Shown here piece by piece: positions 13,374 through 62,667 of a stretch of DNA of 64,000 nucleotides. A model generated the notes under the pieces. The model was given only the letters and a program-made list of their open reading frames with translations, had not been told where the DNA came from and did no database searches. Source of the DNA: Acidimicrobiales bacterium (GTDB lineage: Bacteria > Actinomycetota > Acidimicrobiia > Acidimicrobiales > JAUTXP01); contig DASRGI010000190.1 of assembly GCA_035651095.1 (NCBI GenBank), positions 2,941-66,940 of the forward strand, read 5' to 3'. The position numbers and the translations under genes are program-made. Position 1 is the stretch's first letter. Every line of letters starts with the position of its first letter.

Positions 13374-16162
<2,789 letters not shown>

Positions 16163-16168
16163 ACCATG

Positions 16169-16206
16169 ATTCTGGCTTCAGTCAAAATTTAGAGGAACAC
16201 CAGAAT
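16169..16206. promoter_or_regulatory. Inverted repeat ATTCTGG-N24-CCAGAAT in the AT-rich furA upstream region; possible operator
   Basis: It lies in one of the AT-richest segments noticed by eye in this window, directly upstream of furA. Confidence 0.3.
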
Positions 16207-16728: not shown

Positions 16729-16878
16729 CTGTCTCTCCTCTCGGGAGGGCTGCACCTCCGATCGTCCCCGGTGCAGCGGGCCGGGACCAGGGCTGAACGG
16801 CCCTACGCGGCTGCCCCACTCGCAGCCGTCCCGATGGTCGCCCGCTTCCTCGACCACCCTGCGTCGTAGCATCCGACC

Positions 16879-18000
16879 ATGGTTGATTCGCTCGCAATCG
16901 ACGCATCTCCCGGTGACGTGGTGGTGCTGGTGGGTACCACCAAGGGCCTGTTCGTACTGGCCGCCGGTCCCGACCGCCAGGACTGGGACCTCCGGGGCCC
17001 GTGGTTCCGCGGCGAGGAGATCTACGCCGCCACCCTCGACTGCCGCAACGGCCGCACCCGCCTGCTGGTTGGCGCCACCAGCTCGCACTGGGGCCCATCC
17101 GTGTACCGCTCCGACGACCTGGGCGCGACATGGATCGAGCCCCAGCCCACCACCCTCGCCTTCCCGGAGCACACGGGCGCGGCCGTGGCCCGCGTGTGGC
17201 AGCTCCAGCTCGCGGGCGACGCCCAGCCCGACGTGGTGTACGCGGGCGTGGAGCCGGCCGCCCTCTTCCGCTCGGACGACGGCGGCGAGTCGTTCCGGCT
17301 GGACGAGACCCTCTGGGACCACCCGCACCGGCCGCAATGGCAGCCCGGCGGCGGGGGACTGTGCCTGCACACCATCGTTCCCGACCCGTCCGGCGGGCCC
17401 CGCATGGGCGTGGCCGTGTCCGCCGCCGGCTTCTACCGCACCCTCGACGGGCAGACCTGGGAAGCGGCCAACCGGGGCATCGTGGCGCCCTTCCTGCCCG
17501 ACCCCGACGTCGAGTTCGGCCAGTGCGTGCACAAGGTCGACCGCCATCCCACCGAGCCGGACACCCTCTTCCTCCAGCACCATTGGGGCGTGTACCGGTC
17601 GGACGACTTCGGCGGGAAGTGGGCGGAGATCGGGACGGACGCCCTGCCCTCCACCTTTGGCTTCCCGGTGGTGGCCGACCCCAACCACGCGGGCACGGCC
17701 TACGTGCTGCCCCTCACGTCCGATTTCTTCCGCTGCACGCCCGACGGCCGCCTCCGCGTCTACCGCACCAGCGACGGCGGCCAGTCGTGGGATGCCCTCG
17801 AGCACGGCCTGCCCCAGGAGAACGCCTGGCTCACCGTGCTGCGGGACGGCTTCGCCGCCGACGCCCTCGATCCGGCCGGCCTCTACGTCGGCACCCGCAC
17901 CGGCGATGTGTTCGCGTCGCCCGATGCCGGCGCCTCGTGGCAGGAGCTGGCCCGCCACCTGCCGCCCGTGGTGTGCGTGAAGACGGCGGTGCTGCGCTGA
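16879..18000 (+). CDS. BNR/Asp-box repeat beta-propeller protein (sialidase-like fold, function unknown)
   Basis: 373 aa with six Asp-box motifs (SDDLGATW, SDDGGESF, TLDGQTW, SDDFGGKW, SDGGQSW, SPDAGASW). Confidence 0.8.
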   Translation: MVDSLAIDASPGDVVVLVGTTKGLFVLAAGPDRQDWDLRGPWFRGEEIYAATLDCRNGRTRLLVGATSSHWGPSVYRSDDLGATWIEPQPTTLAFPEHTGAAVARVWQLQLAGDAQPDVVYAGVEPAALFRSDDGGESFRLDETLWDHPHRPQWQPGGGGLCLHTIVPDPSGGPRMGVAVSAAGFYRTLDGQTWEAANRGIVAPFLPDPDVEFGQCVHKVDRHPTEPDTLFLQHHWGVYRSDDFGGKWAEIGTDALPSTFGFPVVADPNHAGTAYVLPLTSDFFRCTPDGRLRVYRTSDGGQSWDALEHGLPQENAWLTVLRDGFAADALDPAGLYVGTRTGDVFASPDAGASWQELARHLPPVVCVKTAVLR

Positions 18001-18281
18001 AGGTCGTCGTCCGCCTGGCATCGGCCCTGCGCGTGCACGCGGGTGGGGCGCCCACGGTCGAGCTCGACCTCCCCGCGCCCGTCACCATCGGCGCCGTCAT
18101 CGATGCCGTGGCCGCTGCCCACCCGGCCGTGGGCCGGCGCGTGCGTGACGAGGCGGGCACGTTGCGCCGGCACGTCAACGTGTTCGTGGGGGCCGACAAC
18201 GCTCGCGATCTCGACGGCGTCGACACGGTGGTGAGCGAGGGCCAGGAGGTGGCCGTGCTGCCCGCTGTGTCCGGGGGCTGA
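17973..18281 (+). CDS. MoaD/ThiS-family ubiquitin-like sulfur-carrier protein ending in Gly-Gly
   Basis: C-terminal part of ORF 17001..18281. The sequence KVVVRLASAL...VNVFVGADN...GQEVAVLPAVSGG ends in GG followed by a stop. Start uncertain: GTG 17973 or CTG 17997. It overlaps the upstream gene. Confidence 0.7.
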   Translation: MREDGGAALKVVVRLASALRVHAGGAPTVELDLPAPVTIGAVIDAVAAAHPAVGRRVRDEAGTLRRHVNVFVGADNARDLDGVDTVVSEGQEVAVLPAVSGG

Positions 18282-19892: not shown

Positions 19893-19920
19893 TTGACAGT
19901 TGTAGGTTAGGTCAGCCTAA
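19893..19920 (+). promoter_or_regulatory. TTGACA -35 element plus IdeR/DtxR-like iron box GTAGGTTAGGTCAGCCTAA
   Basis: Positions 19902-19920 match the IdeR consensus TTAGGTTAGGCTAACCTAA at 15 of 19 positions. The box lies 58 nt upstream of the lipoprotein ATG and overlaps the spacer and -10 region. Confidence 0.7.
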
Positions 19921-19977
19921 CTTTCAGCCGTCCGAAGGCCGAACGGTCGGCACGAGGCTGGCGAAGGAGAGAGATCG

Positions 19978-20397
19978 ATGAAGCACATGGTCCGGGTGGT
20001 GCTGCTCGCGGTCGCGGTGGCGCTGGTGGCGGGAGCCTGCTCGAACTCGAAGAAGGACACGGCGAGCGCCAACGCGAGCTCGCCCGAGGACAAGCGCACG
20101 TCGGCGGCGGCCGTGGCCACGGGCTTGAAGAAGATCGAGGCGACCGCCACCGACATTGCCAAATCGATCACTACCGACAAGGCTCGGGCCAAGAAGCTCA
20201 CCGGGGACATCGAGCCCGTGTGGGAGGGCATCGAGGGCACCGTGAAGGCCAACGACCAGGACTCGTACATCACCTTCGAGGACAACTTCGCCGTGTTGGA
20301 GAAGGCGGCGGAGGACGGCGACGCGACCAAGGCCCAGCAGGGCGCTGACGCGGTTTCGAAGGCGGTCAGCAGCTACCTGGCCAAGTACCCCGGGTGA
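19978..20397 (+). CDS. Small helical lipoprotein, first gene of the FTR1 operon
   Basis: 139 aa with signal peptide and lipobox LVAGAC, RBS GGAGAGAG. The stop overlaps the next start. Confidence 0.75.
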   Translation: MKHMVRVVLLAVAVALVAGACSNSKKDTASANASSPEDKRTSAAAVATGLKKIEATATDIAKSITTDKARAKKLTGDIEPVWEGIEGTVKANDQDSYITFEDNFAVLEKAAEDGDATKAQQGADAVSKAVSSYLAKYPG

Positions 20398-21665
20398 CGA
20401 ACCTGGCCCGCCGCGCCGCGCTGTTGGGGATGACGGGGCTGCTCGCCGTCCTCGCGCTGTTCCTGGTCGCCACGCCGGCCCAGGCAGCCGCCCCTGCGGT
20501 GTCGCGGGCCGAGGCCATCCGGCAACTGGACATCGTCCGGGAGTCCATCGACCGCACCTTGACCCTGATCAAGGACGGTCAGGCCGACAAGGCGTTCGCC
20601 GAGGCCAAGGCCGGCTACCTCAGCCACTTCGAGTTCGTCGAGGTGCCGTTGCGGGTGGTCGACCCCCGGCTGACGTCCGACGCCGAGACCAAGTTCGCCG
20701 AGATCCGCGGTCTCATCAGCTCGGGTGCACCGGTGGGTGAGGTGCGGTCCAACATCGTGGAGCTGCGGTCGCTGATCGACAACGCCGAGCGCCGCCTCAC
20801 CGACCAGGGGGTGGGGGCGCCGGCGGTGGTGTTCGGCCAGTCCTTCCTGATCATCTTCCGGGAGGGGCTGGAGGCGGTGCTGCTGGTGTCGGTCCTCCTC
20901 GGCTACCTCGAGGCGGCCAAGGCCACGCAGTACCGGCGGCCCATCCTCCTCGGCATGGCCGGGGCGGCGGTGGCCACCGTCCTCACCTTCCTCGTGCTGC
21001 GCACGGTGCTGGCCGCCCTGCCCCTCGGCCGGGAGATGCTCGAAGCGGTCACCGCGCTGGTGGCCGTGGTCGTGCTGTTCTACGTCTCCTTCTGGCTGGT
21101 GGCGCGCCTGGAGCAGAAGCGGTGGTTGGAGTTCCTGCGGGCGCGGGTGTGGACGGCGGTGTCGGTGGGATCGACGGCCGCGCTCGCGCTCGTGGGCTTC
21201 ACCGCCGTGTACCGCGAGGGGTTCGAGACCGCGCTCTTCTACCAGGCCCTGCTGTCGTTCGGCCCCGGCCTGGGGCAGTGGGTGGCGGCCGGCCTGGGCG
21301 CGGGCATCGTGGTGCTGACCGCAGTGTCGTGGGTGATCTTCCGCCTGGGCCGGCGGGTGCCGGTGAAGGCCTTCCTGTCCAGCGCCGTGGTGCTGCTGAT
21401 GGCGACGTCCGTGGCGTTCTTCGGCAACGCCGTGCGCTCCCTGCAGGAGGCCGACGTCATCGGGCTCCATCGCTGGACGGGCTGGCCCCGTGCGCCCATC
21501 TTCCTGTCGCAGTCGCTCGGGTACTGGCCCACCCGGGAGACGCTCGTGGCCCAGGCCGCGCTGTCGGCCGTCTACGTCGTGGGCGCGCTGTACCTCTTCG
21601 TGCTACGGCCCCGGCTCCGGCAGGCCCCGGCCGCCGCTCCGGTGGCTGCCACCAACCCCCGCTGA
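20394..21665 (+). CDS. FTR1-family high-affinity iron permease with an N-terminal extracytoplasmic helical domain
   Basis: 423 aa with two REXXE motifs (REGLEAV and REGFETA), 7 TM helices, and a signal peptide followed by a roughly 140-aa soluble domain. Confidence 0.85.
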   Translation: MTNLARRAALLGMTGLLAVLALFLVATPAQAAAPAVSRAEAIRQLDIVRESIDRTLTLIKDGQADKAFAEAKAGYLSHFEFVEVPLRVVDPRLTSDAETKFAEIRGLISSGAPVGEVRSNIVELRSLIDNAERRLTDQGVGAPAVVFGQSFLIIFREGLEAVLLVSVLLGYLEAAKATQYRRPILLGMAGAAVATVLTFLVLRTVLAALPLGREMLEAVTALVAVVVLFYVSFWLVARLEQKRWLEFLRARVWTAVSVGSTAALALVGFTAVYREGFETALFYQALLSFGPGLGQWVAAGLGAGIVVLTAVSWVIFRLGRRVPVKAFLSSAVVLLMATSVAFFGNAVRSLQEADVIGLHRWTGWPRAPIFLSQSLGYWPTRETLVAQAALSAVYVVGALYLFVLRPRLRQAPAAAPVAATNPR

Positions 21666-21668
21666 GCC

Positions 21669-23723
21669 GTGTCCATCCGGGTCGGCGTCGACGTCGGGGG
21701 AACCTTCACCAAGGCCATCGCCTTCGACACGGGCGCGGGCACGATGGTGGCCCAGGCCGTCGTCCCCACCACGCACGACCACGCCCATGGCGTGGCCGCC
21801 GGTGTGGTCGAGGTGGTGGAGCGCATCGCCAATGAGGTCGGGCCCGGGCGCATCGAGCTGGTCACCCACTCCACGACCCAGGCGGTCAACGCCTTGCTGG
21901 AGGGCGACGTGGCCACCGTGGGCATGATCGGCATGGGCCGGGCACCCGACCTGCGCAAGGCCCGGCGACGCACGGTCGAGCCCCGCATCGAACTGAGCGA
22001 GGGAAGGCAGCTGCCCACCGTTCCCGAGTTCCTCGACGTCACCGCCGGGCTCGACGCGGCCGCGGCCGGCGCCGCCATCGCCCGGGTTCGCGCCGCCGGG
22101 GCCCAGGCCATCGCCGTGGCCGAGGCCTTCGCCCCTGACGACCTGACCAACGAGGCCACCATCCGGGCCGCGGCCGCCGCCGCCGGCCTGCCCGTCACCA
22201 CGTCGGCCGAGCTCACCGGCCTGTACGGCCTGGAGTTGCGGGCCGTCACCGCCGCCCTCAACGCCTCCATCCTTCCCATCGCCCTGCGCACGGCCGAAGT
22301 GGTGGGCGAGGGCGTGGCCGCCGCGGGTGTGGCCAGCCCGGTGATGGTCATGCGGGGCGACGGCGGCGCCACCGACCTGGCCGGCTTCCGCCAGGCCCCC
22401 GCCCGCACGCTGTACTCGGGCCCGGCCGCGTCGGTGGCCGGGGCCCTCCGGTCGGGCCGGGTCGGCGATGGCGTCATCGTCGAGGTGGGCGGCACGTCCA
22501 CCAACGTGGCCGCCATCCGGCGGGGGCGCCCGGCGCTGTCGTACGTGCAGGTGGCCAGCCACGCCACCGCCATCAGGGCCCTCGACGTGCGCGTGCTCGG
22601 CGTGGCCGGCGGGTCGATGCTGCGCGCTCGCCGAGGCCGGGTGTACGGCGTCGGTCCCCGCAGCGCCCACATCGCCGGCTACCCGTATGCCTGCTTCCTC
22701 ACCGAGGCCGACTTCGCCGGCGCCGTCACCGAACTCGTGGCACCCCGCCCGGGCGACCCGGTCGACTACCTCGCCCTCCGCCTCGCCGACGGCCGCCACG
22801 TGGCCCTCACCAACACCTGCGCGGCCAATGCGTTGGGCGTGGTCCACGAGGGCGACTACGCCCGGGGCGACACCGCCGCGGCTCTGGCCGCCTTCGCCGT
22901 GGCCGGGCGCGAACTGCGCCTGCCCGCCGAGGAGGTGGCCCGGCGCATGCTGCAGGCGTCGACCCAGGCGGTGGGCGACCTGGTGGCGGCCGTGGCGCGC
23001 GACCACCACCTGCAACGGCCCACGTTGGTGGCCGTCGGCGGTGGTGCGGGCGCCCTGGGCCGGGCCGTCGCCGCGGCCATGGACCTGGACCTGGTGGTGC
23101 CGCCCCACGCCGAGGTCATCAGCGCCATCGGCGATGCCCTCTCCCTCATCAGGGCCGAGCGGGAGCGGACCTTCCACGAGCCCACGCCGGCCGACACCCA
23201 GCGGCTCATCGCCGAGGTCGAGGCCGAAGCCCTGCGGGCCGGCGCGGGCGCCGCCGACCTCGACGTGCGGGTCGAGCACAACGCCGAGCGCAGCGCCGTG
23301 CGGGTCACCGTGACCGGCGCCGTCGGCCTCAGCTCCGGTGCCATGCCCGGGCGCCAGCCGGCCACGGCCGACGAAGCCGGCGCCGCCGCCCGCGAGCGGG
23401 GCTACCAGGACGTCGTGCCCGTGGGCCAGTTCTGGGTGGCGACCGGCGGCGACCGCGTCGTCCTCTTCGACCGCTACGCCGACCTCGTCATCGACGCCAA
23501 GGGCGAGGCCGTGCCCGGCCCCCACGCGGAGACGCCGGTGGCCGAGGTCGTGGCCCGCCACACCCGCAGGGTCGGTCCCGTCACCATCGCCCCCGACGCG
23601 TGGGTGATCAGCGGCGCCCGCTTCCTCCAGGTGCCCGACGCCACCGCCCGCGCCATCCTCGACACCGCCGCGGCCCTCACCGTCGACGGCGCCGCCCCCA
23701 CCGTGATCATCGGAAGAGAGTGA
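21669..23723 (+). CDS. Hydantoinase/oxoprolinase A-family (ASKHA-fold) protein
   Basis: 684 aa. N-terminal IRVGVDVGGTFTKAI, then later IVEVGGTSTNVA and LVAVGGGAGALG. It starts 3 nt after the FTR1 stop. Confidence 0.8.
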   Translation: MSIRVGVDVGGTFTKAIAFDTGAGTMVAQAVVPTTHDHAHGVAAGVVEVVERIANEVGPGRIELVTHSTTQAVNALLEGDVATVGMIGMGRAPDLRKARRRTVEPRIELSEGRQLPTVPEFLDVTAGLDAAAAGAAIARVRAAGAQAIAVAEAFAPDDLTNEATIRAAAAAAGLPVTTSAELTGLYGLELRAVTAALNASILPIALRTAEVVGEGVAAAGVASPVMVMRGDGGATDLAGFRQAPARTLYSGPAASVAGALRSGRVGDGVIVEVGGTSTNVAAIRRGRPALSYVQVASHATAIRALDVRVLGVAGGSMLRARRGRVYGVGPRSAHIAGYPYACFLTEADFAGAVTELVAPRPGDPVDYLALRLADGRHVALTNTCAANALGVVHEGDYARGDTAAALAAFAVAGRELRLPAEEVARRMLQASTQAVGDLVAAVARDHHLQRPTLVAVGGGAGALGRAVAAAMDLDLVVPPHAEVISAIGDALSLIRAERERTFHEPTPADTQRLIAEVEAEALRAGAGAADLDVRVEHNAERSAVRVTVTGAVGLSSGAMPGRQPATADEAGAAARERGYQDVVPVGQFWVATGGDRVVLFDRYADLVIDAKGEAVPGPHAETPVAEVVARHTRRVGPVTIAPDAWVISGARFLQVPDATARAILDTAAALTVDGAAPTVIIGRE

Positions 23724-23726
23724 CTC

Positions 23727-24161
23727 GTGGCCCTCTACGTACCCGCCGGTCGCCGCCGCCGCCGTGCCCTCGCCCTGGCCATGGCCGGCCTTGCCATCGG
23801 GCTCGTCTTCGGCGTGCTCATCGGCCGGTCGTCGGCTTCCTCGGTCGAGGACCGCGTCCGCAGCGTGCAGGCCGACGCCCGCCAGACAGCGGCCGGCCTG
23901 CGCGTCATCGCCCTGCACGACCAGGCCGGCGCCATCGCCAATGAGGCGCCTGGCAACGGCGGAGCCGACCTGGTCCTGCGGCGCACCCGTACCGAGCTGC
24001 AGCACGAGTTCGCCCGAGCGCCATGGCTGAAGCAGGCGGAGCGCGACGACCTGCTGCGTGCTCTCGACGCCCTGGCCGCCATCACCGACCGCACCGGCGC
24101 CGCGTTCGGCCAGGCGGCCGATGCCCTGGCCGGCAAGATCGAGACGACGTTCGGCGCATAG
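23727..24161 (+). CDS. Membrane-anchored helical protein, last gene of the FTR1 operon
   Basis: 144 aa with an N-terminal TM helix (ALALAMAGLAIGLVFGVLIG). Starts 3 nt after the hydantoinase-like stop. Confidence 0.55.
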   Translation: MALYVPAGRRRRRALALAMAGLAIGLVFGVLIGRSSASSVEDRVRSVQADARQTAAGLRVIALHDQAGAIANEAPGNGGADLVLRRTRTELQHEFARAPWLKQAERDDLLRALDALAAITDRTGAAFGQAADALAGKIETTFGA

Positions 24162-24191: not shown

Positions 24192-24944
24192 TCAGGCATA
24201 GGTCCGGACCAGGGCCAGCACGGCGCCGGCGTCGGGGCCCTCGCCCCGCAAGGCCGTGCTGCTCCCCTCGACCCGGCGCCCGGCCACCAGGCACAGCTCC
24301 AGGGCGTCGCCCCGGATCACCGTCTGGGGATCGACATCCATCCCGAACGCCCACGTGTCGCCGGCCGGCCCGGTGAGCTCGAACCCCACCGGCCCGGCCA
24401 GCTCCCGTCCCTCCCGGGTGAAGGCGTAGGGCAGCGTGCGCCAGGCCAGGCGGGCGATCAGCCGCAGCCGGTCGGTGGGCGGGAGCGGCCGGCCCAGCCC
24501 CCCGGCGACATCGCCCGTGTGGATCCACGTCTCCGCCAGCCGGGTGGTGGCCAGCGTCTGGACCGACAGCTCGCCCGCCACCCACTGCACTCGGTCTCCC
24601 GGATCGTGGGCGGCCAGGGCGTCCCGCAGCCGGGCGACGCTCGACCGCCACCGATCGAAGATGGCGGCGGCCGGAACAGTGCGGTCCCGGGCCACCATGA
24701 GCTCGGCGCCCTCGTCCACCGACGCGGCCGGTCCCAGCCCGGCGGTGAGGTCGGCCAGGGCTTCGTCGAACCGGCCGGTGGCGCTGCCGATGGCCATCTC
24801 GTTGGTCTGCGCCAGGTGGAGCACGACGTCGGCCACCGTCCAGCCCGGGCACGCCGACGGCCGCCGCCACGCGGCCTCGTCCAAGCCGTCCACCAGCGCG
24901 GCCAGCTCGGCCTGCTGTGCGGCCAACGCCCCCAATGCGTCCAC
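24192..24944 (-). CDS. Mycothiol-dependent maleylpyruvate isomerase family (DinB-fold) protein
   Basis: WRRPSACPGWTVADVVLHLAQTNE is typical of this actinobacterial family. GTG 24944 is the chosen start within ORF 24192..25187. Confidence 0.75.
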   Translation of the reverse strand: MDALGALAAQQAELAALVDGLDEAAWRRPSACPGWTVADVVLHLAQTNEMAIGSATGRFDEALADLTAGLGPAASVDEGAELMVARDRTVPAAAIFDRWRSSVARLRDALAAHDPGDRVQWVAGELSVQTLATTRLAETWIHTGDVAGGLGRPLPPTDRLRLIARLAWRTLPYAFTREGRELAGPVGFELTGPAGDTWAFGMDVDPQTVIRGDALELCLVAGRRVEGSSTALRGEGPDAGAVLALVRTYA

Positions 24945-24971
24945 ATCGAGGACTGTACGCTCCGACCCGAC

Positions 24972-25268
24972 ATGGCCGTCATGGAGATCGACACCTTCCA
25001 GCTGGCCGAAGGCGTCGAGGAGGCCGACTTCCTGGACGCCGACCGCCGCATGCAGGCGGACTTCGCCCACCAGCAGCCGGGCATCCTCCGGCGCACGACA
25101 GCCCGCACCACCGACGGCGAGAAGTGGGTCGTCGTGGTGCTGTGGGCGTCGGAGGCCGATGCCGACGCGGCGGCCACCATGCTGCACAGCGACCCCGTGG
25201 CCGGTGCATTCATGGCCCTGGTGGACCCGGCGTCCCTGGAACGCACCCGGGTCACCACGCTCGGCTGA
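24972..25268 (+). CDS. Small ABM/Dabb-fold protein, putative
   Basis: A 98-aa internal ORF (MAVMEIDTFQL...VVVVLWASEADADAA), divergent from the DinB gene. Confidence 0.45.
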   Translation: MAVMEIDTFQLAEGVEEADFLDADRRMQADFAHQQPGILRRTTARTTDGEKWVVVVLWASEADADAAATMLHSDPVAGAFMALVDPASLERTRVTTLG

Positions 25269-25286: not shown

Positions 25287-25640
25287 CTACTGCTGCACGA
25301 GCATCAGGTAGTTGCCTTCGGGGTCACTGATGGCGGCCAGCGTGGGCCCGCCGGGCACGTCGAAGGGCTCGATCACCACGGCCCCGCCCATGGCACTCGC
25401 CTGCTCGAGCGACGCCCGCAGGTCTCGCACCTGGACGTACAGCGTGATGCCGGTGCGGTCGCCAGCCCGGATGTGCCCGCCCGGCCCGGGCTCCGGGCCC
25501 CCGATGCCGGGTGGGATCTGCATGATGGGACCGTCGCCGATGGTCCAGTTGAACAGCCCGCTGTAGAAGGCCCGCTGCCGTTCCGGGTCGAGCGCCTGGA
25601 GCTCCCAGTGCACGACCGGTCGTGCCCAGTCATCGCCCAT
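25287..25640 (-). CDS. VOC/glyoxalase-family protein
   Basis: 117 aa from the internal ATG. Contains VVHWELQALDPERQRAFYSGLFNW...AAISDPEGNYLMLVQ. Confidence 0.75.
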   Translation of the reverse strand: MGDDWARPVVHWELQALDPERQRAFYSGLFNWTIGDGPIMQIPPGIGGPEPGPGGHIRAGDRTGITLYVQVRDLRASLEQASAMGGAVVIEPFDVPGGPTLAAISDPEGNYLMLVQQ

Positions 25641-25715
25641 GCCCAGACGGTACCCACGCGAGCGCGGGCAGCGCTTCCCTCCAATTGACATGACCGGTGT
25701 GTCCCATGTACGCTA

Positions 25716-25731
25716 TCGATTGATCAATCGA
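25716..25731. promoter_or_regulatory. Perfect 16-bp palindrome TCGATTGATCAATCGA: operator site A, upstream of the paaA-like gene
   Basis: Read directly. It lies just downstream of a TTGACA (25685-25690) and TACGCT promoter-like pair. Related copies occur at 31145, 33305 and 44035. Confidence 0.65.
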
Positions 25732-25779
25732 CAAATTCTGTTGAACACCGATTCCCTGTTGAGCACCTTCGGAGGAGCG

Positions 25780-26691
25780 ATGACGGAGCAGGTCGAAGAC
25801 CGGGCCCAGGATCCCCGTCTGGCGGTCCGCTACGAGCGCTGGGACGAGATGAGCGACGAGTACCGCACCGCGGCGGCCAAGGTGGCGTCGTTCCAGGCGT
25901 TGGCCGAGCTCGTCGGCGTCCTCCCGTTCAACGAGTGGATGGACCGGGTGCCGGACTACGCCCGCAAGCAGATGCTCGTGGCCAAGATCCAGGACGAGGT
26001 GGGGCACGGGCATGTCACCGCCCGGGTGGCCGAGGACCTCGGCGTCACCCGTGAGGAGATCCTCGAGGACTTCGCTGCCGGCAAGACCAAGCTCCTCAAC
26101 ATCTTCCACTACGGCTTCGCGACCTGGGAGGAGATCGGCCCGGCCGCCCTGCTCATGAACTCGGCCGCCATCGTCCAGTTCCAGTCGCTCGACCAGGGCA
26201 CGTACCTGCCCTACACCCGGGCGCTCAAGAAGATCGAGAAGGAAGAGGGCTTCCACTACCACCACGCCCTCGACCTCACGCACCAGATCATGCAGGAGGG
26301 CGAGGCCGAACAGCGGGCCATCGTGCAGGACGCCTTCGACACCTGGTTCCCGCGCCTGCTGGCCTACTTCGGCCCGCCCGACAGCGATCGCTACCACGAC
26401 AACGTCGGGTACAAGTTCGGTCTGAAGGTCGACTCCAACGACGACCTGCGCCAGCGCTGGATCGCCAAGATCGTCCCCGTGTTCCGCGAGCTGGGCGTGC
26501 ACGTGTCCGACGACCTGGCCTCGTGTGACGAGGAGAGCGGCGAGTGGTCCTACGTCGCCGTCGACTGGGCGGCGTCCAAGAAGCTCATCGCCGAAGGCGG
26601 TCCCAAGTACCAGGAGTGGGTCGACACGGTCCGCGGCTCGCTGGAGCGCAACGAGCGCTACCGGAAGGCCGCTCTGGCGCTGGCGGCCTGA
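25780..26691 (+). CDS. paaA: PaaA-like diiron acyl-CoA epoxidase catalytic subunit
   Basis: RBS GGAGGAG. Two EXXH motifs (QDEVGHGH, EKEEGFHYHH). The length and sequence are typical of 1,2-phenylacetyl-CoA epoxidase subunit A. Confidence 0.8.
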   Translation: MTEQVEDRAQDPRLAVRYERWDEMSDEYRTAAAKVASFQALAELVGVLPFNEWMDRVPDYARKQMLVAKIQDEVGHGHVTARVAEDLGVTREEILEDFAAGKTKLLNIFHYGFATWEEIGPAALLMNSAAIVQFQSLDQGTYLPYTRALKKIEKEEGFHYHHALDLTHQIMQEGEAEQRAIVQDAFDTWFPRLLAYFGPPDSDRYHDNVGYKFGLKVDSNDDLRQRWIAKIVPVFRELGVHVSDDLASCDEESGEWSYVAVDWAASKKLIAEGGPKYQEWVDTVRGSLERNERYRKAALALAA

Positions 26692-26692
26692 C

Positions 26693-26998
26693 GTGCACGC
26701 GGCCGACGACGATCCCAACGCCTACGAGGTGTTCGTCCAGATAGGCGGCTCGGGCAAGCCCGTGCAATACGTGGGCAGCGTCCGGGGCGCCGACCCGGTG
26801 CTGGCTTGGCACGCGGCCAAGGAAGTGTTCACCCGGCGGGAGGACTGCACCCAGCTGTGGGTGGTACCCCGCGCCGCGGTGGTGCGCAGCGACGCCGAGG
26901 ACGAGCTCGTCCTGGCCAAGGGCAGTGCTCGGCGCTACCGACTCCCCAGCTATCCAAGCAGCCGCCGCCGGATGCGCAGCCGCTCGGAGGTGGCGTGA
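26693..26998 (+). CDS. paaB: PaaB-like epoxidase subunit
   Basis: About 101 aa, with YEVFVQ...GKPVQYVGSVRGADPVLAWHAAKEVFTRRE...LWVVPR. Confidence 0.8.
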   Translation: MHAADDDPNAYEVFVQIGGSGKPVQYVGSVRGADPVLAWHAAKEVFTRREDCTQLWVVPRAAVVRSDAEDELVLAKGSARRYRLPSYPSSRRRMRSRSEVA

Positions 26999-27741
26999 TC
27001 CATGCACCGCTGGTCGTCGCCTGGTGCGACGACCTCTTCCTCCAAGGCCACCAGCTCGCTCGCTGGATCACCGACTACGTCGATCTCGAGGAGTCGCTCG
27101 CCATGGGCTCCGTCGCCCAGGAACACCTGGCCCACGCGGCCGCGCTCCTCGGCGCCTGCGAGATGAACGAGTACGAACGCGACGCCCACGTGTACGAGCG
27201 GCCCGCGGACCAGTGGTTCCCGTCCGCCCTCAGCTTCCTGCCCCGGCAGGACTGGCCCGCCACCGTGGCCCACGCCCTCTTCCTCAACCAAGGGCTGCTG
27301 GTGTTGCGCAGCCACGTGCAGCTGCCCGACAAGCCGCGCGTCCAGCAGCTGGCCGAGATCATCCGGGCCGAGCAGGACCTGCACGCCCGCCACTGGGCAC
27401 GCTGGGTCCGGGTGTTCGCATCCGACCCCGAGCTGGCCGACGAGTTCGGCGACCGGGTGGCCAAAGCCGCGGGCATGGCGGTCGACCTCTTCGGTTTCCC
27501 GGCCGGCGTCGACGGTCCCGACGCTCTGGTGGGCGACACCGACCCGGCCGACATGCAGCGGGAGTGGGCCAAGGCGACCACCTGCGTCCTCGAGGAGGCC
27601 GGCATCACCGCACCGGACCTGCCGGACACCCCGCAGCCCCGCCAGCCGGGCGACACCCGCGAGCCGCTGACCCAGGTCCTCGCCGAACTGCGCTGGGCGC
27701 GGGGCCCGGGAGGTGCCAACCGCTACGAGGTCTACCGGTGA
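26995..27741 (+). CDS. paaC: PaaC-like epoxidase structural subunit
   Basis: Its GTG overlaps the paaB stop. A helical ferritin-like sequence (CDDLFLQGHQLARWITDYVDLEESLAMGSVAQEHLAHA). Confidence 0.7.
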   Translation: MIHAPLVVAWCDDLFLQGHQLARWITDYVDLEESLAMGSVAQEHLAHAAALLGACEMNEYERDAHVYERPADQWFPSALSFLPRQDWPATVAHALFLNQGLLVLRSHVQLPDKPRVQQLAEIIRAEQDLHARHWARWVRVFASDPELADEFGDRVAKAAGMAVDLFGFPAGVDGPDALVGDTDPADMQREWAKATTCVLEEAGITAPDLPDTPQPRQPGDTREPLTQVLAELRWARGPGGANRYEVYR

Positions 27742-28199
27742 CCTCGGCCATCGAGGACGCCCTGGCCAAGGTCGAGGATCCCGAGGTCCCGGTCACCCTG
27801 CTGGATCTGGGCGTGCTGCGGAGCGTCACCGTCGACGCCGACCGCGTGGTGGTCCTGCTCCGCCCCACCCGGCTCGGATGCCCGGGCCGCGACCGCATGG
27901 AGCGGGACGTGACCACCGCCGTGCACGCCGTCGACCCCCACCTGGCCGTCGAGGTGGCGTGGGAGCCGCTGCCCTGGCGGGAGCAGGACGTCACCCCCGC
28001 GGGGCGGGCCGCCCTCAAGGACATCGGGTACGCCGTGCTGCTGGGTGGGCCGGCCCGGTGCCCGTACTGCGGGTCGGAGGACGCGAAGTCGGAAGGCGAG
28101 TTCGGCGGCGCGCTGTGCAAGGCGCCCTACACCTGCCGGTCGTGTGGCTCGACGTTCGATGCCATGCGCTCGGCCCTGGCGGCGTTGGGAGAGGCGTGA
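27738..28199 (+). CDS. paaD: PaaD-like (DUF59/SufT-type) protein with a C-terminal Cys4 ribbon
   Basis: Contains VEDPEVPVTLLDLGVLR, plus CPYCGS...CRSCGS. Both start and stop overlap the neighbouring genes. Confidence 0.75.
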   Translation: MTSAIEDALAKVEDPEVPVTLLDLGVLRSVTVDADRVVVLLRPTRLGCPGRDRMERDVTTAVHAVDPHLAVEVAWEPLPWREQDVTPAGRAALKDIGYAVLLGGPARCPYCGSEDAKSEGEFGGALCKAPYTCRSCGSTFDAMRSALAALGEA

Positions 28200-45480: not shown

Positions 45481-47093
45481 TGGACTTCAGCTTCGCCGAG
45501 GTGCTCGGCGCCCTCGCCGTTCCCTTCGCCGCCAAGGAAGCCGTCGTCGACGGCGAGCGCCGGTTCACGTGGGCCCAGTTCGACGCCCGCACGCGCGGGT
45601 TCGCCGCCTTCCTCGCCAGGCTGGGGCTGCACCCCCGCGCCGAGCGGGCCGACCTGGCCAACCACGAGTCGGGTCAGCACCACCTGGCCATCTACCTCCA
45701 CAACTCGGCCGAGTTCCTGGAGGCACTGGTCGGTGCCACCCGCGCCCGCCTGGCCCCGTTCAACGTCAACTACCGGTACCAGGCCGCCGAGCTGACCTAC
45801 CTCCTCGATGACGCGTCGCCCTCCGTGGTCGTCTACGAGGGCGCCTTCGCCCCCGTGCTGGCCGAGGTGCTGCCCCGGTTGCGGCGCCGCCCGGTGCTCG
45901 TGCAGGTCGACCGGGGCCACGGCGACCTGCTGCCCGATGCCATCCCCTATGAGGCGGCGGTGGCCGCGCACAGCGCCCTGCCCGAGGCCAACGGCGACGA
46001 CCTCTACATCCTCTACACGGGAGGCACGACGGGCATGCCCAAGGGCGTGCTCTGGCGGCAGGCCGACATCTTCGTCACCGCCCTCGGGGGCCGGAACTTC
46101 CGGGGCGGCGGGGCTGAGTGGTCAAGCGTCGAGGACCTGGTGGAGGCCGCCATCAAGCGCCCCGGCCCTCGCCTCCTGCCCGCCCCGCCGTTCATGCACG
46201 GCACGGGCCAGTGGACCGCCCTCCAGGCCCTCGTCGCCGGAGGCACGGCCATCATCCAACCGGGCGCCACCCGCTTCGACCCCCACACCGTGCTCGACAC
46301 CATCGAGCGGGAGCGGGTCGAAGTGCTGGTGATCGTGGGCGACGCCTTCGCCCGTCCCCTGGTGGAGGCCCTCGACGGGAGTGACCGGCACCGGGACCTG
46401 TCGTCGCTCGTCGCCATCGTCTCCAGCGGCGCCGCCGTCACCAGCACGACCAGGGAGGCCATCGCCCGCCTCCTCCCGCACGTGAAGCTGAAGGACGTGG
46501 TCGGGTCGTCCGAGAGCGGGCCCCAGGCCGACGCCCAGGAGGGCCGGGTGTTCGTGCCCCGGCCGGGCACGCTGGTGGTGTCGACCGATCGCGCTCGGGT
46601 CCTGTCGCCGACCGGCGAAGCCGGCGAGGAAGGGTGGCTGGCGTCGTCCGGCCGCGTACCCCTCGGGTACCTGGGCGACCCGGCCAAGACGGCCGACACC
46701 TTCCCCGTCATCGACGGCGTGCGCTTCTCCATCCCCGGCGACCGGGCGCGCTACGTGGACGACGGTGCCATCGAGGTGCTGGGCCGGGACTCCATGACCA
46801 TCAACACCGGGGGCGAGAAGGTGTTCGCCGAAGAGGTCGAGTCCGTGCTGTGCGACCACCCAGCGGTGGCCGACGCCCTGGTGGTGGGCAGGCCCAGCGA
46901 GCGTTGGGGTTCCGAGGTCGTGGCCGTGGTACAGCTCACCAGCGCCACGACCGACACCGAGTTGCTGGCCCACTGCACCGACCACCTGGCCCGCTACAAG
47001 GCGCCCAAGCAGATCGTGTTCGTCGACGCCGTGCGCCGCTCGCCGGCGGGCAAGCCCGACTACGCCTGGGCGTCCGAGGTGGCCAGGGCCTGA
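45480..47093 (+). CDS. AMP-dependent acyl-CoA synthetase (FadD3-like, medium size)
   Basis: Its ATG overlaps the upstream stop. Contains YILYTGGTTGMPKGV, RDSMTINTGGEKV and LARYKAPK. Confidence 0.85.
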   Translation: MDFSFAEVLGALAVPFAAKEAVVDGERRFTWAQFDARTRGFAAFLARLGLHPRAERADLANHESGQHHLAIYLHNSAEFLEALVGATRARLAPFNVNYRYQAAELTYLLDDASPSVVVYEGAFAPVLAEVLPRLRRRPVLVQVDRGHGDLLPDAIPYEAAVAAHSALPEANGDDLYILYTGGTTGMPKGVLWRQADIFVTALGGRNFRGGGAEWSSVEDLVEAAIKRPGPRLLPAPPFMHGTGQWTALQALVAGGTAIIQPGATRFDPHTVLDTIERERVEVLVIVGDAFARPLVEALDGSDRHRDLSSLVAIVSSGAAVTSTTREAIARLLPHVKLKDVVGSSESGPQADAQEGRVFVPRPGTLVVSTDRARVLSPTGEAGEEGWLASSGRVPLGYLGDPAKTADTFPVIDGVRFSIPGDRARYVDDGAIEVLGRDSMTINTGGEKVFAEEVESVLCDHPAVADALVVGRPSERWGSEVVAVVQLTSATTDTELLAHCTDHLARYKAPKQIVFVDAVRRSPAGKPDYAWASEVARA

Positions 47094-49363
47094 TCGGCCA
47101 TCCGGTTGGCCACGGCGGCCACGACCTCGTTCTTGGGCATGGCCGGGGCGAAGAGGAAGCCCTGTCCCAACGTGCAGCCGTGGGCCTGGAGCACGCGCAG
47201 CTGGTGGGGCCGCTCGATGCCCTCGGCCACCGTCGTGATGCCGAGGGCCCGGGCCAGGTCGATGATGGCCTTCACCAGTTGCAGGCCGGCCTCGTCGTCG
47301 ATCGCGTCCACGAAGCTGCGGTCGATCTTGATCTCGTCGAGCGGGAAGTCGCGCACGTAGGACAGCGCCGAGTACCCGGTGCCGAAGTCATCCAGGGCCA
47401 CGCGCACGCCCAGGGCCTTGAGGGCGGTCAACTGGGTGATGGCCTTGTCCCGCCCCCGCAGCGCGCTCTCGGTGATCTCGAGGGTGAGCAGGTGGGCCGG
47501 CAGCCCGCTGGTCTCGAGGGCAGCGCGCACCTCGCCCACCAGGTCGCCGTCGAACTGGCGGACCGATACGTTGACGCTCACTGCGTAGTCCCTGCGCAAC
47601 GTGAGTCGCCACGCGGCGGCTTGGCGGCAGGCGTCGGTCAGCACGAATCGGCCGATCTCGGCGATGAGCCCGCTCTCCTCGGCTACGGGGATGAAGCGGG
47701 CCGGGGGGATGGCGCCGGCCGTGGGGTGGTTCCACCGGGCCAGGGCCTCGAAACCCACGATCTCTCGGTTGTGGATGGAGACGATGGGTTGGTAGTGGAC
47801 GTCCAAGTCGCCTTGGCGCACGGCCTGGATGAGATCGTTGCGCAGGGCGACCCGCTGCTGCAGGCGCTCTTGCATGACAGGGACGAACAGCTCGATGCGG
47901 CCCTTGCCCGCTCCTTTGGCCTGGTACATCGCGATGTCGGCGGCCCGCAGCAGCTCGTGAACAGAGTGGGGCTCGTCGCCCGGGCCGACGACGGCCACGC
48001 CCACGCTCGTGGTGACCATGAGATGGAACCCGTGCAGGACGAAGGGCCGCTCGAAGGCCGCCAGGATGCGCTGGGCGGCGTCGAGGGCGCCCTCGGGGCC
48101 GCTCACGTCGTCCAGCAGCACGGCGAACTCGTCACCGCCGAGGCGGGCAGGCACGTCCCGCGGGCGCAAGGCCGTCCGCAGCCGGTGGGAGACGGCGCGG
48201 AGCAGGTCGTCGCCGACGTTGTGGCCGAGCGTGTCGTTCACGTTCTTGAAGTCGTCCAGGTCGATGAACACCAGCGCCGCCCTCGTGTCGGGGTTCAGGC
48301 AGGTTCGCTCCACGTACTGCACGAACTCGTCGCGGTTGACCAGACCGGTGAGGGCGTCGTGGCTGGCCCGGTGGATGAGCAACTGCTCGAGCAGCTTGTG
48401 TTCGGTCACGTCCCGGAGGGTGACGAGCACTGCCCCTTCGGGCCCCCCGGCATAGGACGGGTTGGCGATGGCCTCGATCGTGCGCCGGCGGCCGTGGGTG
48501 TCGGTGCTGCGCCACTCGGCGTGCTCCAGGTCGTTGGCCGTCCGGGCGTCATCGACCACGGACGCCGCTCCCCGCGCGCTGGACACTCCGAGGCTCCCCA
48601 GCCGACGACCGACGAGATCGTTCTCGTTCAGGCCCACCAGGGCCGCCGCCGACGGCGAGGCGAAGGTGACGCGGTTGTCGGGCCCGGTGACCATGATGCC
48701 GTCGGCCGCGTTCTGGACCAGGGCCCGGAACCGCAACTCGCTCTCGGCCATGACCGTGGCCCGCTCGTGCGAGGCCACGGCGTGCAGGCGGTGCCGGTTG
48801 GCCCGCAGGACGATGAAGGTGATCAGGCCCCCGGCACTCATCATGGCCAGGAGGGAGCCGACCCGCAGCCACCACACCGCCCGTTCGGCGGAGCGGGTCG
48901 CCTGGTTGCTGGTCTCCTTGAGGACGTCATGGAGCTGGTCGAAGGCGGGGTCCACCCGCTCCTCGTCGACCTTGATGGCAGCGCCGAGGTCACCCTGGCG
49001 CAGGAGCTTGAACTCCTCGGTCACCCCGTCCCGGTATTCACGGAAGGGCGCGGCGGCGTTTTCGTACCAGCGCGACCGGGTCGAGACCTGGGCGAGGAGG
49101 TCGTCGGCGCGGGCCAGATCGGACGTCATCTTCATCTCGATCTCAGGGGTGACGGTCCCCACGGCCCGAGCCCGCCACTCGTCGGCGTCTATGGCCTCGG
49201 CCACGGCCTGCAGCCTGGCGGCGCGCAGGGCGGCCTTGTGGTGCTCCTCAGCCGTGCTGGTCAGGCCCAGCACCGACCAACCGGCGACAGCCACAACGGC
49301 CACGACCAGCACTGGAGCTACCCACAAGCCGTGTCGCCCGCTTCTCCGCCAGTCTCCACGCAT
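47060..49363 (-). CDS. Membrane sensor with PAS, GGDEF and EAL domains (c-di-GMP turnover)
   Basis: Two TM helices flank a helical extracytoplasmic domain. PAS region (RFRALVQNAADGIMV), GGDEF motif RLGGDEFAV, and EAL motifs (EALARW, DDFGTGYS). The start was chosen at ATG 49363; the ORF track extends to 49447. Confidence 0.9.
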   Translation of the reverse strand: MRGDWRRSGRHGLWVAPVLVVAVVAVAGWSVLGLTSTAEEHHKAALRAARLQAVAEAIDADEWRARAVGTVTPEIEMKMTSDLARADDLLAQVSTRSRWYENAAAPFREYRDGVTEEFKLLRQGDLGAAIKVDEERVDPAFDQLHDVLKETSNQATRSAERAVWWLRVGSLLAMMSAGGLITFIVLRANRHRLHAVASHERATVMAESELRFRALVQNAADGIMVTGPDNRVTFASPSAAALVGLNENDLVGRRLGSLGVSSARGAASVVDDARTANDLEHAEWRSTDTHGRRRTIEAIANPSYAGGPEGAVLVTLRDVTEHKLLEQLLIHRASHDALTGLVNRDEFVQYVERTCLNPDTRAALVFIDLDDFKNVNDTLGHNVGDDLLRAVSHRLRTALRPRDVPARLGGDEFAVLLDDVSGPEGALDAAQRILAAFERPFVLHGFHLMVTTSVGVAVVGPGDEPHSVHELLRAADIAMYQAKGAGKGRIELFVPVMQERLQQRVALRNDLIQAVRQGDLDVHYQPIVSIHNREIVGFEALARWNHPTAGAIPPARFIPVAEESGLIAEIGRFVLTDACRQAAAWRLTLRRDYAVSVNVSVRQFDGDLVGEVRAALETSGLPAHLLTLEITESALRGRDKAITQLTALKALGVRVALDDFGTGYSALSYVRDFPLDEIKIDRSFVDAIDDEAGLQLVKAIIDLARALGITTVAEGIERPHQLRVLQAHGCTLGQGFLFAPAMPKNEVVAAVANRMADQALATSDAQA

Positions 49364-49482
49364 ACCGGTCCCAGTCGCTGGTCTCCCAGGAATTTCATCG
49401 TCGTGCCTGACAGTCGACTTGACGACCAAAATTCGCACTTTGGACACTTTGGTGTGCAGCGGTCGGTAGCGCCCCGGTCGTC

Positions 49483-49821
49483 GTGTGCGGGGGAATGCCG
49501 TCGTACACTTTTCCGAGTATGCGCAGGACAGGAGGCGTCCGCGGCGCGACAGGTCTTTTCCCCGGAGATCACGTCCGCCGGACGTACGCCGAAGACGACG
49601 AGCACTGCCAGGCGCTGGACGCCTCCTTCGCCGACGGGATCACTGCCGGCGAGAAGCTGCTGTCCTTGGGGCCCGCCGGCGCCGTGGCCGGGGAGGTCGA
49701 TGTCACCCAGAGCGAGCTGGTGGAGACGCTTCGACGCGCATTGTTGGAGGCGTCACCGACGTTCCGGAACGTGTGGTCGCTCCTCGGGCATGGCGACCGG
49801 GCATTGGTGGCGTCGAGCTGA
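49483..49821 (+). CDS. Small ORF carrying a MEDS-domain-like N-terminal segment; possibly a truncated paralog
   Basis: PGDHVRRTYAEDDEHCQALDASFADGITAGEKLL resembles the MEDS N-terminus, and resembles the start of the next gene. Its stop overlaps the next ATG. Confidence 0.35.
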   Translation: MCGGMPSYTFPSMRRTGGVRGATGLFPGDHVRRTYAEDDEHCQALDASFADGITAGEKLLSLGPAGAVAGEVDVTQSELVETLRRALLEASPTFRNVWSLLGHGDRALVASS

Positions 49822-62619: not shown

Positions 62620-62667
62620 CTTCTCCAATCCGCGCGCGGTTGCTGCCCGTCTGTCACCCTCGTCGGG

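Follow-up and report, generated by a model that had tools for sequence, protein, structure and literature searches.

The cassette

The 64-kb window of Acidimicrobiales DNA analysed here (contig DASRGI010000190.1; "the window" is this whole stretch of 64,000 nucleotides) holds, from 19978 to 24161 on the + strand, a cassette of four genes. They encode a lipoprotein, a permease of the FTR1 iron transporter family, a hydantoinase-A-like protein of the ASKHA (actin/Hsp70) fold and a membrane-anchored protein of 144 amino acids (aa). This report deals with the association of the permease with the ASKHA protein and with its potential meaning for iron import. The open reading frames (ORFs) are:

19978 to 20397, + strand: lipoprotein, 139 aa, a four-helix-bundle accessory module (ORF list; lipobox Cys, AlphaFold2 (AF2) model, conserved residues; no Pfam domain)
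20394 to 21665, + strand: FTR1 permease, 423 aa (ORF list)
21669 to 23723, + strand: cytoplasmic ASKHA protein, 684 aa, with Hydant_A_N, Hydantoinase_A and an unmatched C-terminal region, residues 498-684 (ORF list; Pfam, PDB profile search)
23727 to 24161, + strand: 144-aa protein with R9-R13, a hydrophobic segment at residues 14-33 and a presumed extracytoplasmic helical domain (ORF list; no Pfam domain)

Position and strand of the four ORFs, as given in an initial annotation made from the sequence, are borne out by the ORF list, Pfam and NCBIfam. The lipoprotein and permease genes overlap by 4 nt and the other two junctions are gaps of 3 nt; the four genes are translationally coupled. The GC content at third codon positions (GC3) is 0.89-0.95 in all four frames, which matches the expectation for real genes in a genome of 70-77% GC. 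Permease and lipoprotein are 100% identical to proteins from an Acidimicrobiales metagenome-assembled genome (MAG). In databases the cassette proteins go by the names 'N-methylhydantoinase A/oxoprolinase', 'high-affinity iron transporter' and 'hypothetical protein'.

Linkage of the FTR1 permease and the ASKHA protein

A scan of a genome collection recovered ASKHA relatives in 556 species-representative genomes. Counts out of 80 or 78 loci given below refer to the best 80 loci (55-81% identity), in which conserved neighbours were searched within 7 kb of the ASKHA gene. In 78 of 78 informative loci the gene directly 5' of ASKHA encodes FTR1; in the remaining two of the 80 the contig ends inside the ASKHA gene. 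Co-occurrence of the two genes across genomes, which the initial annotation had suggested as a check, is thus a property of every informative locus. The carriers comprise Acidimicrobiia, Ilumatobacteraceae, Pseudonocardiales, Frankiales/Sporichthyaceae, Mycobacteriales, Solirubrobacteraceae and one MAG labelled Acidobacteria. The estimated distance from the FTR1 stop to the ASKHA start ranges from -16 to +44 nt, with one outlier. By clustering, the family of the 144-aa protein is found directly 3' of the ASKHA gene in 77/80 loci and that of the lipoprotein 5' of FTR1 in 61/80.

In some carriers the two proteins are a single chain of about 1,170-1,195 aa (1,195 aa in P0069). Such fusions of the Sporichthya type are known from three independent sources, and two loci from Acidimicrobiia (L054 and L055) are also fused. 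The linkers are 55-65 aa long, rich in Pro and Ala and lineage-specific. Because those of the Acidimicrobiia are unrelated to those of the Sporichthya type, the fusion of FTR1 and ASKHA has arisen at least twice independently. In the fused chain the ASKHA domain follows the seventh transmembrane (TM) segment, an order which fits an N-out/C-in topology of the permease. Assembly or frameshift artefacts are ruled out as a source of the fusions by independent JGI, Logan and NCBI assemblies and by the lineage-differing linkers. Chance adjacency in an operon is likewise ruled out, by the 78/78 synteny and by the fusions.

Beyond the four cassette families no gene family is common to more than 24 of the 80 loci. 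Downstream genes for MFS, DoxX-like and DsbA-like proteins were considered as parts of the system and rejected since they are confined to Pseudonocardiales. Partner domains were also sought in the window, in nine long ORFs of high GC3 (443-859 aa) and one ORF of 376 aa. EfeO/M75, EfeB/DyP, cupredoxin, P19 and ferredoxin domains are absent from these ten ORFs and from the conserved neighbours in the 80 loci. FTR1 permeases of known systems depend on a ferroxidase or peroxidase such as Fet3p, EfeB/EfeO or FtrB; here neither the cassette nor the ten ORFs nor the conserved neighbours yielded a multicopper oxidase, cupredoxin, DyP or M75 domain. Hydantoinase_B was found neither within 7 kb in the 80 loci nor among the ten ORFs, and the long ASKHA members checked by Pfam or sequence are all N-terminally fused to FTR1 or to a protein kinase, none to HyuB. 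The view that the cassette has no HyuB, EfeO/EfeB, P19 or ferredoxin partner, previously taken from the window, therefore holds for the ORFs scanned and across the 80 loci.

The ASKHA protein

Pfam assigns Hydant_A_N to residues 4-169 (E 7e-22) and Hydantoinase_A to residues 191-497 (E 1.5e-45) of the 684-aa protein, and NCBIfam agrees. The nearest solved structure in a PDB profile search is an N-methylhydantoinase (7hk5, E 2e-26, residues 4-334). Other solved relatives are the 5-oxoprolinase/caprolactamase alpha subunit (6yra), acetophenone carboxylase gamma (5l9w) and acetone carboxylase beta (5m45/5svb). The alignment to solved HyuA-type structures covers residues 4-334 and, weakly, about 400-490. 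The C-terminal region is conserved inside the family, including a C-terminal G-R-E. Since the NCBIfam equivalog scores are far under every cutoff (CapA: 53 vs 1000 bits), the protein is best classified as a divergent HyuA-like ATP-binding protein and not as a demonstrated hydantoinase or oxoprolinase. Three ATP motifs are readily located:

21690 to 21713, + strand: DVGGTFTK
22482 to 22505, + strand: EVGGTSTN
23037 to 23051, + strand: GGGAG

The residues after the two phosphate loops deserve attention. In the window protein Lys15 and Asn279 replace the Asp which follows each loop. N279 is present in 80/80 loci and K15 in 77/80. FTR1-linked members have GGTFTK and GGTSTN at these sites. In the solved N-methylhydantoinase the sequences are GGTFTD and GGTSAD, and in paralogs without FTR1 they are GGTFT[DH] and GGTSTD. 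An exhaustive phmmer search yielded 331 cluster representatives at E <=1e-30; among the top 150 we count 31 with the K/N, 32 with the H/D and 16 with the D/D signature. DVGGTFT, EVGGTS and GGGAG are kept in all three signature classes. Invariant, too, are Asp8 (Mg/phosphate-binding), Glu272 and the Gly-rich loops.

FTR1 linkage tracks the K/N signature of the clade. All five K/N representatives examined are FTR1-linked, although identity goes as low as 35% and contig GC spans 41-72%. FTR1-linked loci at low identity are L081 (47% ASKHA identity, with the rearranged order ASKHA, TM-140, FTR1), L082 and L083 (39% identity, GC 0.41), L090 and L091 (38%) and L089 (35%). The 144-aa protein family is present in all distant FTR1-linked loci, and FTR1 partners at 34-47% ASKHA identity keep the N-domain motif AY[LI]DHFE[FLI][VI]E. 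None of six H/D or D/D paralogs with informative context (P0409, P0457, P0374, P0376, P0387, P0408) is linked to FTR1. The first five of these are as similar to the window protein as the distant FTR1-linked members, or more so. That the ASKHA protein is coupled to iron import by FTR1, as proposed at the outset from one operon, is thus strongly corroborated by universal synteny, independent fusions, a linkage that persists at 35-39% identity in unrelated genomic backgrounds and a conserved iron box (see below).

The paralogs have contexts of their own. P0408 (984 aa) carries a Ser/Thr kinase domain (Pkinase, residues 19-267) N-terminal to Hydant_A_N and Hydantoinase_A. In four loci (L084:3633-7724, L094:2564-6756, L096:2703-6723 and L088:891-5664) a D/D or H/D paralog comes immediately after a membrane protein with several TM segments, about 430 aa long, for which Pfam has no family. 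Among themselves the membrane proteins share 36-40% identity; that of L088 is apparently split into ORFs of 250 and 137 aa, and an extra gene precedes the ASKHA gene there. Next to the paralog, on its 3' side, a small soluble protein is encoded, in several cases with an HExxH-like motif. The arrangement resembles another module that is so far undescribed, consisting of a permease, a HyuA-like ATPase or kinase and a small protein. The wider HyuA-like subfamily, i.e., K/N, H/D and D/D members together, may be a group of permease-associated ATPases or kinases, with several paralogs directly behind the 430-aa membrane protein.

The permease

Pfam FTR1 (PF03239) matches permease residues 150-353 with E 3e-21 and 76.3 bits against a cutoff of 25.3. 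The NCBIfam models TIGR00145 (E 7e-31) and EfeU (E 1e-27) both score under their strict cutoffs, so by these scores the permease is a member of the FTR1 family and not an EfeU equivalog. Its parts are:

20394 to 20486, + strand: signal peptide, residues 1-31 (...ATPAQA/AAP; sequence and hydropathy, putative cleavage site)
20487 to 20837, + strand: extracytoplasmic four-helix-bundle N-domain, residues 32-148 (AF2 model, conserved residues)
20838 to 21665, + strand: FTR1 core with seven TM segments and cytoplasmic C-terminus (Pfam, TIGR00145, motifs, hydropathy)
20859 to 20873, + strand: REGLE in TM1, residues 156-160 (motif reading)
21213 to 21227, + strand: REGFE in TM4, residues 274-278 (motif reading)

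REGLE and REGFE are nearly invariant in 33 permease homologs. An additional, third RE..E match, REMLE at residues 213-217, is located between TM2 and TM3. The cytoplasmic loop ARLEQKRWLEFLRARVW is conserved. The hydropathy profile displays a signal peptide followed by seven hydrophobic segments, and the predicted topology is N-out/C-in. The C-terminus should be cytoplasmic because the in-frame C-terminal fusions to the ASKHA protein require it. Two REXXE motifs, a signal peptide of its own and a helical N-domain had been ascribed to the permease before; motif reading, hydropathy and AF2 agree with each of these.

The helical modules

Across the lipoprotein family the Cys of an L-x-A-C lipobox hardly varies. 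AF2 models the mature lipoprotein (mean pLDDT, the model's own confidence score, 90.9) and the permease N-domain (residues 32-148; pLDDT 89.7, pTM 0.81) as up-down four-helix bundles. Conserved residues are W82, E86, T88, Y97, E101 and D102 in the lipoprotein and G74-Y-L, H78-F-E80, E83, P-L-R87 and E98 in the N-domain. Both bundles share an aromatic-E-x-x-E element and, about 15 residues on, an acidic pair.

Pfam and NCBIfam gave only sub-threshold noise with both small proteins of the cassette. In Foldseek searches against the PDB the N-domain has no significant match (best E 0.25, imelysin at rank 30 with E 1.2), and the lipoprotein retrieves generic bundles alone, i.e., PsbQ, cytochrome c' and b562 (best E 0.1); BRIL/b562 and designed proteins are also among the generic matches of the bundle models. 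Membership in the imelysin/M75 family was rejected. A reading as haem proteins is ruled out as CxxCH is missing and the lipoprotein conserves neither Met nor His.

Three related helical modules had been supposed to exist in the cassette, and pairwise comparison supports two of them. Directly compared by hhalign, the lipoprotein and N-domain profiles match with E 0.026, which is marginal and not significant alone; the other pairs are worse. The connection is recovered through intermediates. In L082 the upstream protein of 385 aa is a tandem array whose C-terminal repeat matches the N-domain profile (E 1.8e-5) and whose N-terminal repeat matches the lipoprotein core (E 1.7e-3), and the upstream proteins of L090 and L089 match FTR1 N-domains by BLASTP (E 2e-8 and 2e-7). 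Because these intermediates connect both, the accessory protein in the lipoprotein position is paralogous to the N-domain that the permease itself carries. For the third supposed relative, the 144-aa protein, profile comparisons show no relation to either. Little is conserved in its family besides APW at residues 98-100, and the positive-inside rule predicts an N-in/C-out orientation.

The three carriers that supply the intermediates have 41-50% GC (contigs e.g. of GCA_964501085.1 and GCA_026998705.1). In these low-GC carriers the lipoprotein is replaced by longer proteins with one to three ExxE four-helix modules (L082:2661-3818, L090:2145-2738, L089:2-742). Those of L082 and L090 carry a membrane anchor at the C-terminus; the ORF of L089 is truncated where its contig ends.

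Putative promoter and iron box

Two elements can be read ahead of the lipoprotein gene:

19893 to 19923, + strand: putative promoter, TTGACA at 19893-19898, a 19-nt spacer and TAACTT at 19918-19923 (manual reading of the sequence)
19902 to 19920, no strand assigned: IdeR/DtxR-type iron box GTAGGTTAGGTCAGCCTAA, 15/19 matches to the IdeR consensus TTAGGTTAGGCTAACCTAA

The promoter has weak points: the spacer is long and the -10 element is merely TAnnnT-like. A strict scan for sigma-70 promoters and terminators made no call, and the assignment combines manual reading with the iron box. The 19-bp consensus TTAGGTTAGGCTAACCTAA is taken from the literature (PMC4598388). The box GTAGGTTAGGTCAGCCTAA sits between the upstream gene and the lipoprotein gene and overlaps the putative spacer and -10 element. 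No other site in the whole 64-kb window has 5 mismatches or fewer; this one is matched in two overlapping registers (19902 and 19907).

In the related loci (0.99 Mb) we count 35 matches with up to 5 mismatches. Of these, 31, from 24 loci, are positioned 30-140 bp 5' of the lipoprotein gene, a further one precedes the L075 cassette and three are elsewhere. The 30-140 bp zone is 1% of the sequence; about 0.3 matches are expected there as against 31 observed. The box thus recurs in the same position in about 25 related loci. As it is unique in the window and clustered upstream of the cassette in related loci, repression in response to iron, within an IdeR/DtxR regulon, is a well-supported prediction.

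Comparison with known systems

FeoB, a ferrous iron permease with an N-terminal cytoplasmic G-domain and small accessory proteins, is the nearest functional analogy: an iron permease and a cytoplasmic NTP-binding domain are joined in one polypeptide or operon. A relation in sequence or fold does not exist. The G-domain of FeoB is N-terminal on an unrelated permease, whereas the ASKHA domain is C-terminal on FTR1.

FetM is an FTR1-family permease with an additional N-terminal extracytoplasmic domain. In this feature the permease described here resembles the FetMP/P19-cFtr1/FtrABCD systems. It differs from them in that P19/FetP/FtrA, cupredoxin (FtrB) and polyferredoxin (FtrD) are missing from the cassette, the window ORFs scanned and the conserved flanks, and in that both accessory structures are all-helical in the models. 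The nearest genetic precedent is FetMP-FetABCDEF, in which an ABC-type ATPase is linked to an FTR1 system (PMC10783030). The ATPase of the present cassette is of the ASKHA fold, is without permease subunits of its own, adjoins FTR1 in every informative locus and is sometimes fused to it.

With EfeUOB and EfeUOB-M of E. coli, B. subtilis and P. syringae the cassette shares the seven-TM FTR1/EfeU permease with two REXXE motifs, all-helical extracytoplasmic accessory proteins with acidic/His clusters encoded in the operon and, here as a prediction, iron regulation. Efe systems encode with the permease EfeO, which has cupredoxin and M75 domains, or the M75-only EfeM, and the Tat-exported DyP peroxidase EfeB. 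Each M75 domain of EfeM and EfeO consists of two four-helix bundles and has an HxxE site besides an acidic one (PMC9174327). In contrast, the present bundles are single, about 115 aa long, and one of them is part of the permease chain. Peptidase_M75, cupredoxin and DyP (EfeB) domains were not detected in the cassette or the window ORFs scanned, and the cytoplasmic ASKHA partner has no Efe counterpart.

Compared to HyuA-type enzymes, the ASKHA protein has the same Hydant_A_N and Hydantoinase_A domains and keeps the phosphate-1, phosphate-2 and adenosine motifs. Unlike them, no HyuB partner or fusion was found, GGTFTD has become GGTFTK and GGTSxD has become GGTSTN, and the constant partner is a metal permease.

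Full-text literature searches found no paper which pairs FTR1 with a hydantoinase-like protein. Co-mentions occur solely in unrelated contexts, one being a fungal genome and the other a fosmid on which a ZIP permease lies beside an acetophenone carboxylase. The earlier impression that a system of such composition is undescribed is consistent with these searches. This suggests that FTR1-type iron uptake is what is known here and that its partner set is what is new.

Potential mechanism and alternatives

On balance we lean toward the view that the cassette is an iron-repressed FTR1-type (OFeT/ILT) importer with an undescribed partner set, in which the ASKHA protein acts on the permease itself by ATP-dependent gating, energising or iron release. 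Iron would be captured outside by the lipoprotein and the permease N-domain through ExxE and the Glu/Asp cluster, in the N-domain also through His. The bundles would pass it on to the permease's REXXE motifs and so stand in for EfeO/EfeM, P19/FetP or Fet3p, and the membrane-anchored 144-aa protein would be a constant further subunit. At the cytoplasmic C-terminus of the permease the ASKHA protein might use binding and hydrolysis of ATP to gate the permease, to drive transport, or to strip tightly bound iron from its cytoplasmic face. We propose the permease and not a lactam as its target because no HyuB was found, both Asp after the phosphate loops are replaced and fusion to the permease tail has occurred repeatedly. 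We infer that iron is the substrate and that the bundles bind metal; the topology of the 144-aa protein and the entire ATP-dependent mechanism are likewise proposals.

Several points speak against this view. Almost all carriers are uncultured MAGs and the evidence is purely computational. Known FTR1 systems are 'oxidase-dependent', yet no oxidase was identified in the ORFs and loci searched; such an enzyme may be encoded at another place in the genome, or the bundles may act as ferroxidases themselves, given that carboxylate sites in four-helix proteins are able to oxidise Fe2+. The bundles match no known metal-binding family, and it is their conserved residues which argue for metal binding. 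An iron box within 5 mismatches is seen in only about 40% of the loci. Residues 500-684 of the ASKHA protein have no match in PDB profiles and no Hydant_A_C domain in Pfam. The exchanges of Asp for Lys and Asn beside the phosphate loops could mean that hydrolysis is lost, leaving a pure nucleotide sensor, or that a new small-molecule chemistry was gained. Further, the HyuB search spans the ten ORFs of the 64-kb window and the 7-kb surroundings of the loci, and a HyuB-like partner elsewhere in the genomes is possible.

Could the ASKHA protein be a genuine small-molecule enzyme, an ATP-dependent kinase or an activator of lactams or ketones, which works on a cytoplasmic iron-receiving ligand or an imported chelate and forms a metabolic pair with the permease? 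Its closest characterised relatives, N-methylhydantoinase, the 5-oxoprolinase/caprolactamase alpha subunit and subunits of acetophenone and acetone carboxylases, all phosphorylate substrates, and its ATP motifs are intact. Canonical-Asp paralogs adjoin another permease family together with sugar genes (a ROK-like regulator, NanE), where a kinase role is plausible. Nevertheless, we regard this as unlikely. FTR1 permeases carry metal ions via their REXXE motifs, not chelates. HyuA-type enzymes that have been characterised are all known to depend on a HyuB-like partner, and no such gene is conserved near these loci. The FTR1-linked clade has specifically lost the two Asp which enzymes and paralogs keep. 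Fusion to the permease tail, at least two times, is more typical of physical partners than of enzymes acting in sequence, even if fused metabolic enzymes also exist. That the cassette serves to release or modify an imported iron chelate, a role first considered for it, is unsupported on the same grounds: these permeases carry ions and the hydrolase partner is absent. A role in metal trafficking, the other original suggestion, fits better, as does one in energising or gating.

The same fusions and synteny would also suit a non-catalytic or slow sensor of nucleotides or iron which only regulates the permease, shutting import at high cytoplasmic iron or energy status, with transport itself powered in the manner of other FTR1 systems. 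The Asp to Lys and Asp to Asn exchanges throughout the clade would be understandable, and FeoB sets a precedent for an NTPase domain on an iron permease for which gating versus energising is debated. We consider a mere sensor improbable all the same: the invariant Asp8, Glu272 and Gly-rich loops point to retained catalysis, a three-domain protein of 684 aa is large for a sensor, and no oxidase partner that could drive the usual transport was found among the searched ORFs and neighbours. Very improbable, finally, is that the cassette imports or handles another metal, e.g., Pb, Mn or Cu as PbrT-type members do, or that it exports iron. The ILT superfamily includes the lead-uptake protein PbrT with extra N-terminal domains, and the ligands of the bundles are carboxylates for hard metals and not diagnostic. 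A gene for a CsoR-type metal repressor (Trns_repr_metal, L089:4903-5205) just 3' of the cassette in one distant carrier also counts against iron. Its product may regulate that cassette instead of IdeR, and another metal is conceivable there. On the other hand, the window and about 25 related loci have IdeR-type iron boxes positioned across the putative promoter, EfeU/Ftr1 ferrous iron transporter models are the best matches at family level, and both REXXE iron motifs are conserved.

Returning to an ASKHA protein that acts on the permease, one may speculate further. Tentatively, and with more doubt than confidence, FTR1-ASKHA could be a new class of primary active, ATP-driven metal transporter, in which an actin/Hsp70-fold ATPase, docked on or fused with the cytoplasmic tail of the permease, hydrolyses ATP to pull iron through or off the REXXE path so that no external ferroxidase is needed. 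All characterised FTR1 systems we know of are interpreted via an external oxidase partner. If true, an FTR1 permease driven by ATP would be independent of the external ferroxidase which defines the known 'oxidase-dependent' systems.

The finding bears on how FTR1/EfeU-type permeases are energised and how they release tightly bound iron, thought to be ferric, into the cytoplasm. The clade is present in at least 556 species-level genomes and in lower-GC lineages; being without a recognisable oxidase in the loci searched and locked to an ATP-binding protein, it provides an experimental handle. The natural single-chain fusions of about 1,170-1,195 aa are suited for cryo-electron microscopy and for transport work in proteoliposomes. 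Many 'N-methylhydantoinase A' annotations in Actinomycetota receive a first functional context, and the enzyme names are almost certainly wrong. In addition two new accessory protein families are defined, the ExxE four-helix module and the TM-anchored 144-aa protein.

Surroundings of the cassette

Upstream, a catalase-peroxidase-type gene is located at 13377 to 15764 on the - strand (796-aa ORF; Pfam peroxidase, E 1e-72). Directly 5' of it and on the same strand is an ORF of 166 aa (15677 to 16177). Actinobacteria often carry furA directly upstream of the catalase-peroxidase gene. From 16870 to 18281 (+ strand) follow the 376-aa ORF, a BNR/Asp-box repeat protein, and a short ORF which ends in Gly-Gly and by eye is MoaD/ThiS-like.

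On the 3' side of the cassette a divergently oriented gene occupies 24192 to 25187 (- strand). The run of ORFs from 25639 to 28199 (+ strand) resembles, by eye, PaaA/B/C/D-like subunits of a phenylacetyl-CoA oxygenase, followed by an enoyl-CoA hydratase-like ORF; it appears to be unrelated to the iron cassette. Farther away the window encodes two PAS-GGDEF-EAL proteins of cyclic-di-GMP turnover, at 47063 to 49639 (- strand) and at 62620 to 63999 (+ strand), the second of which runs past the window end.

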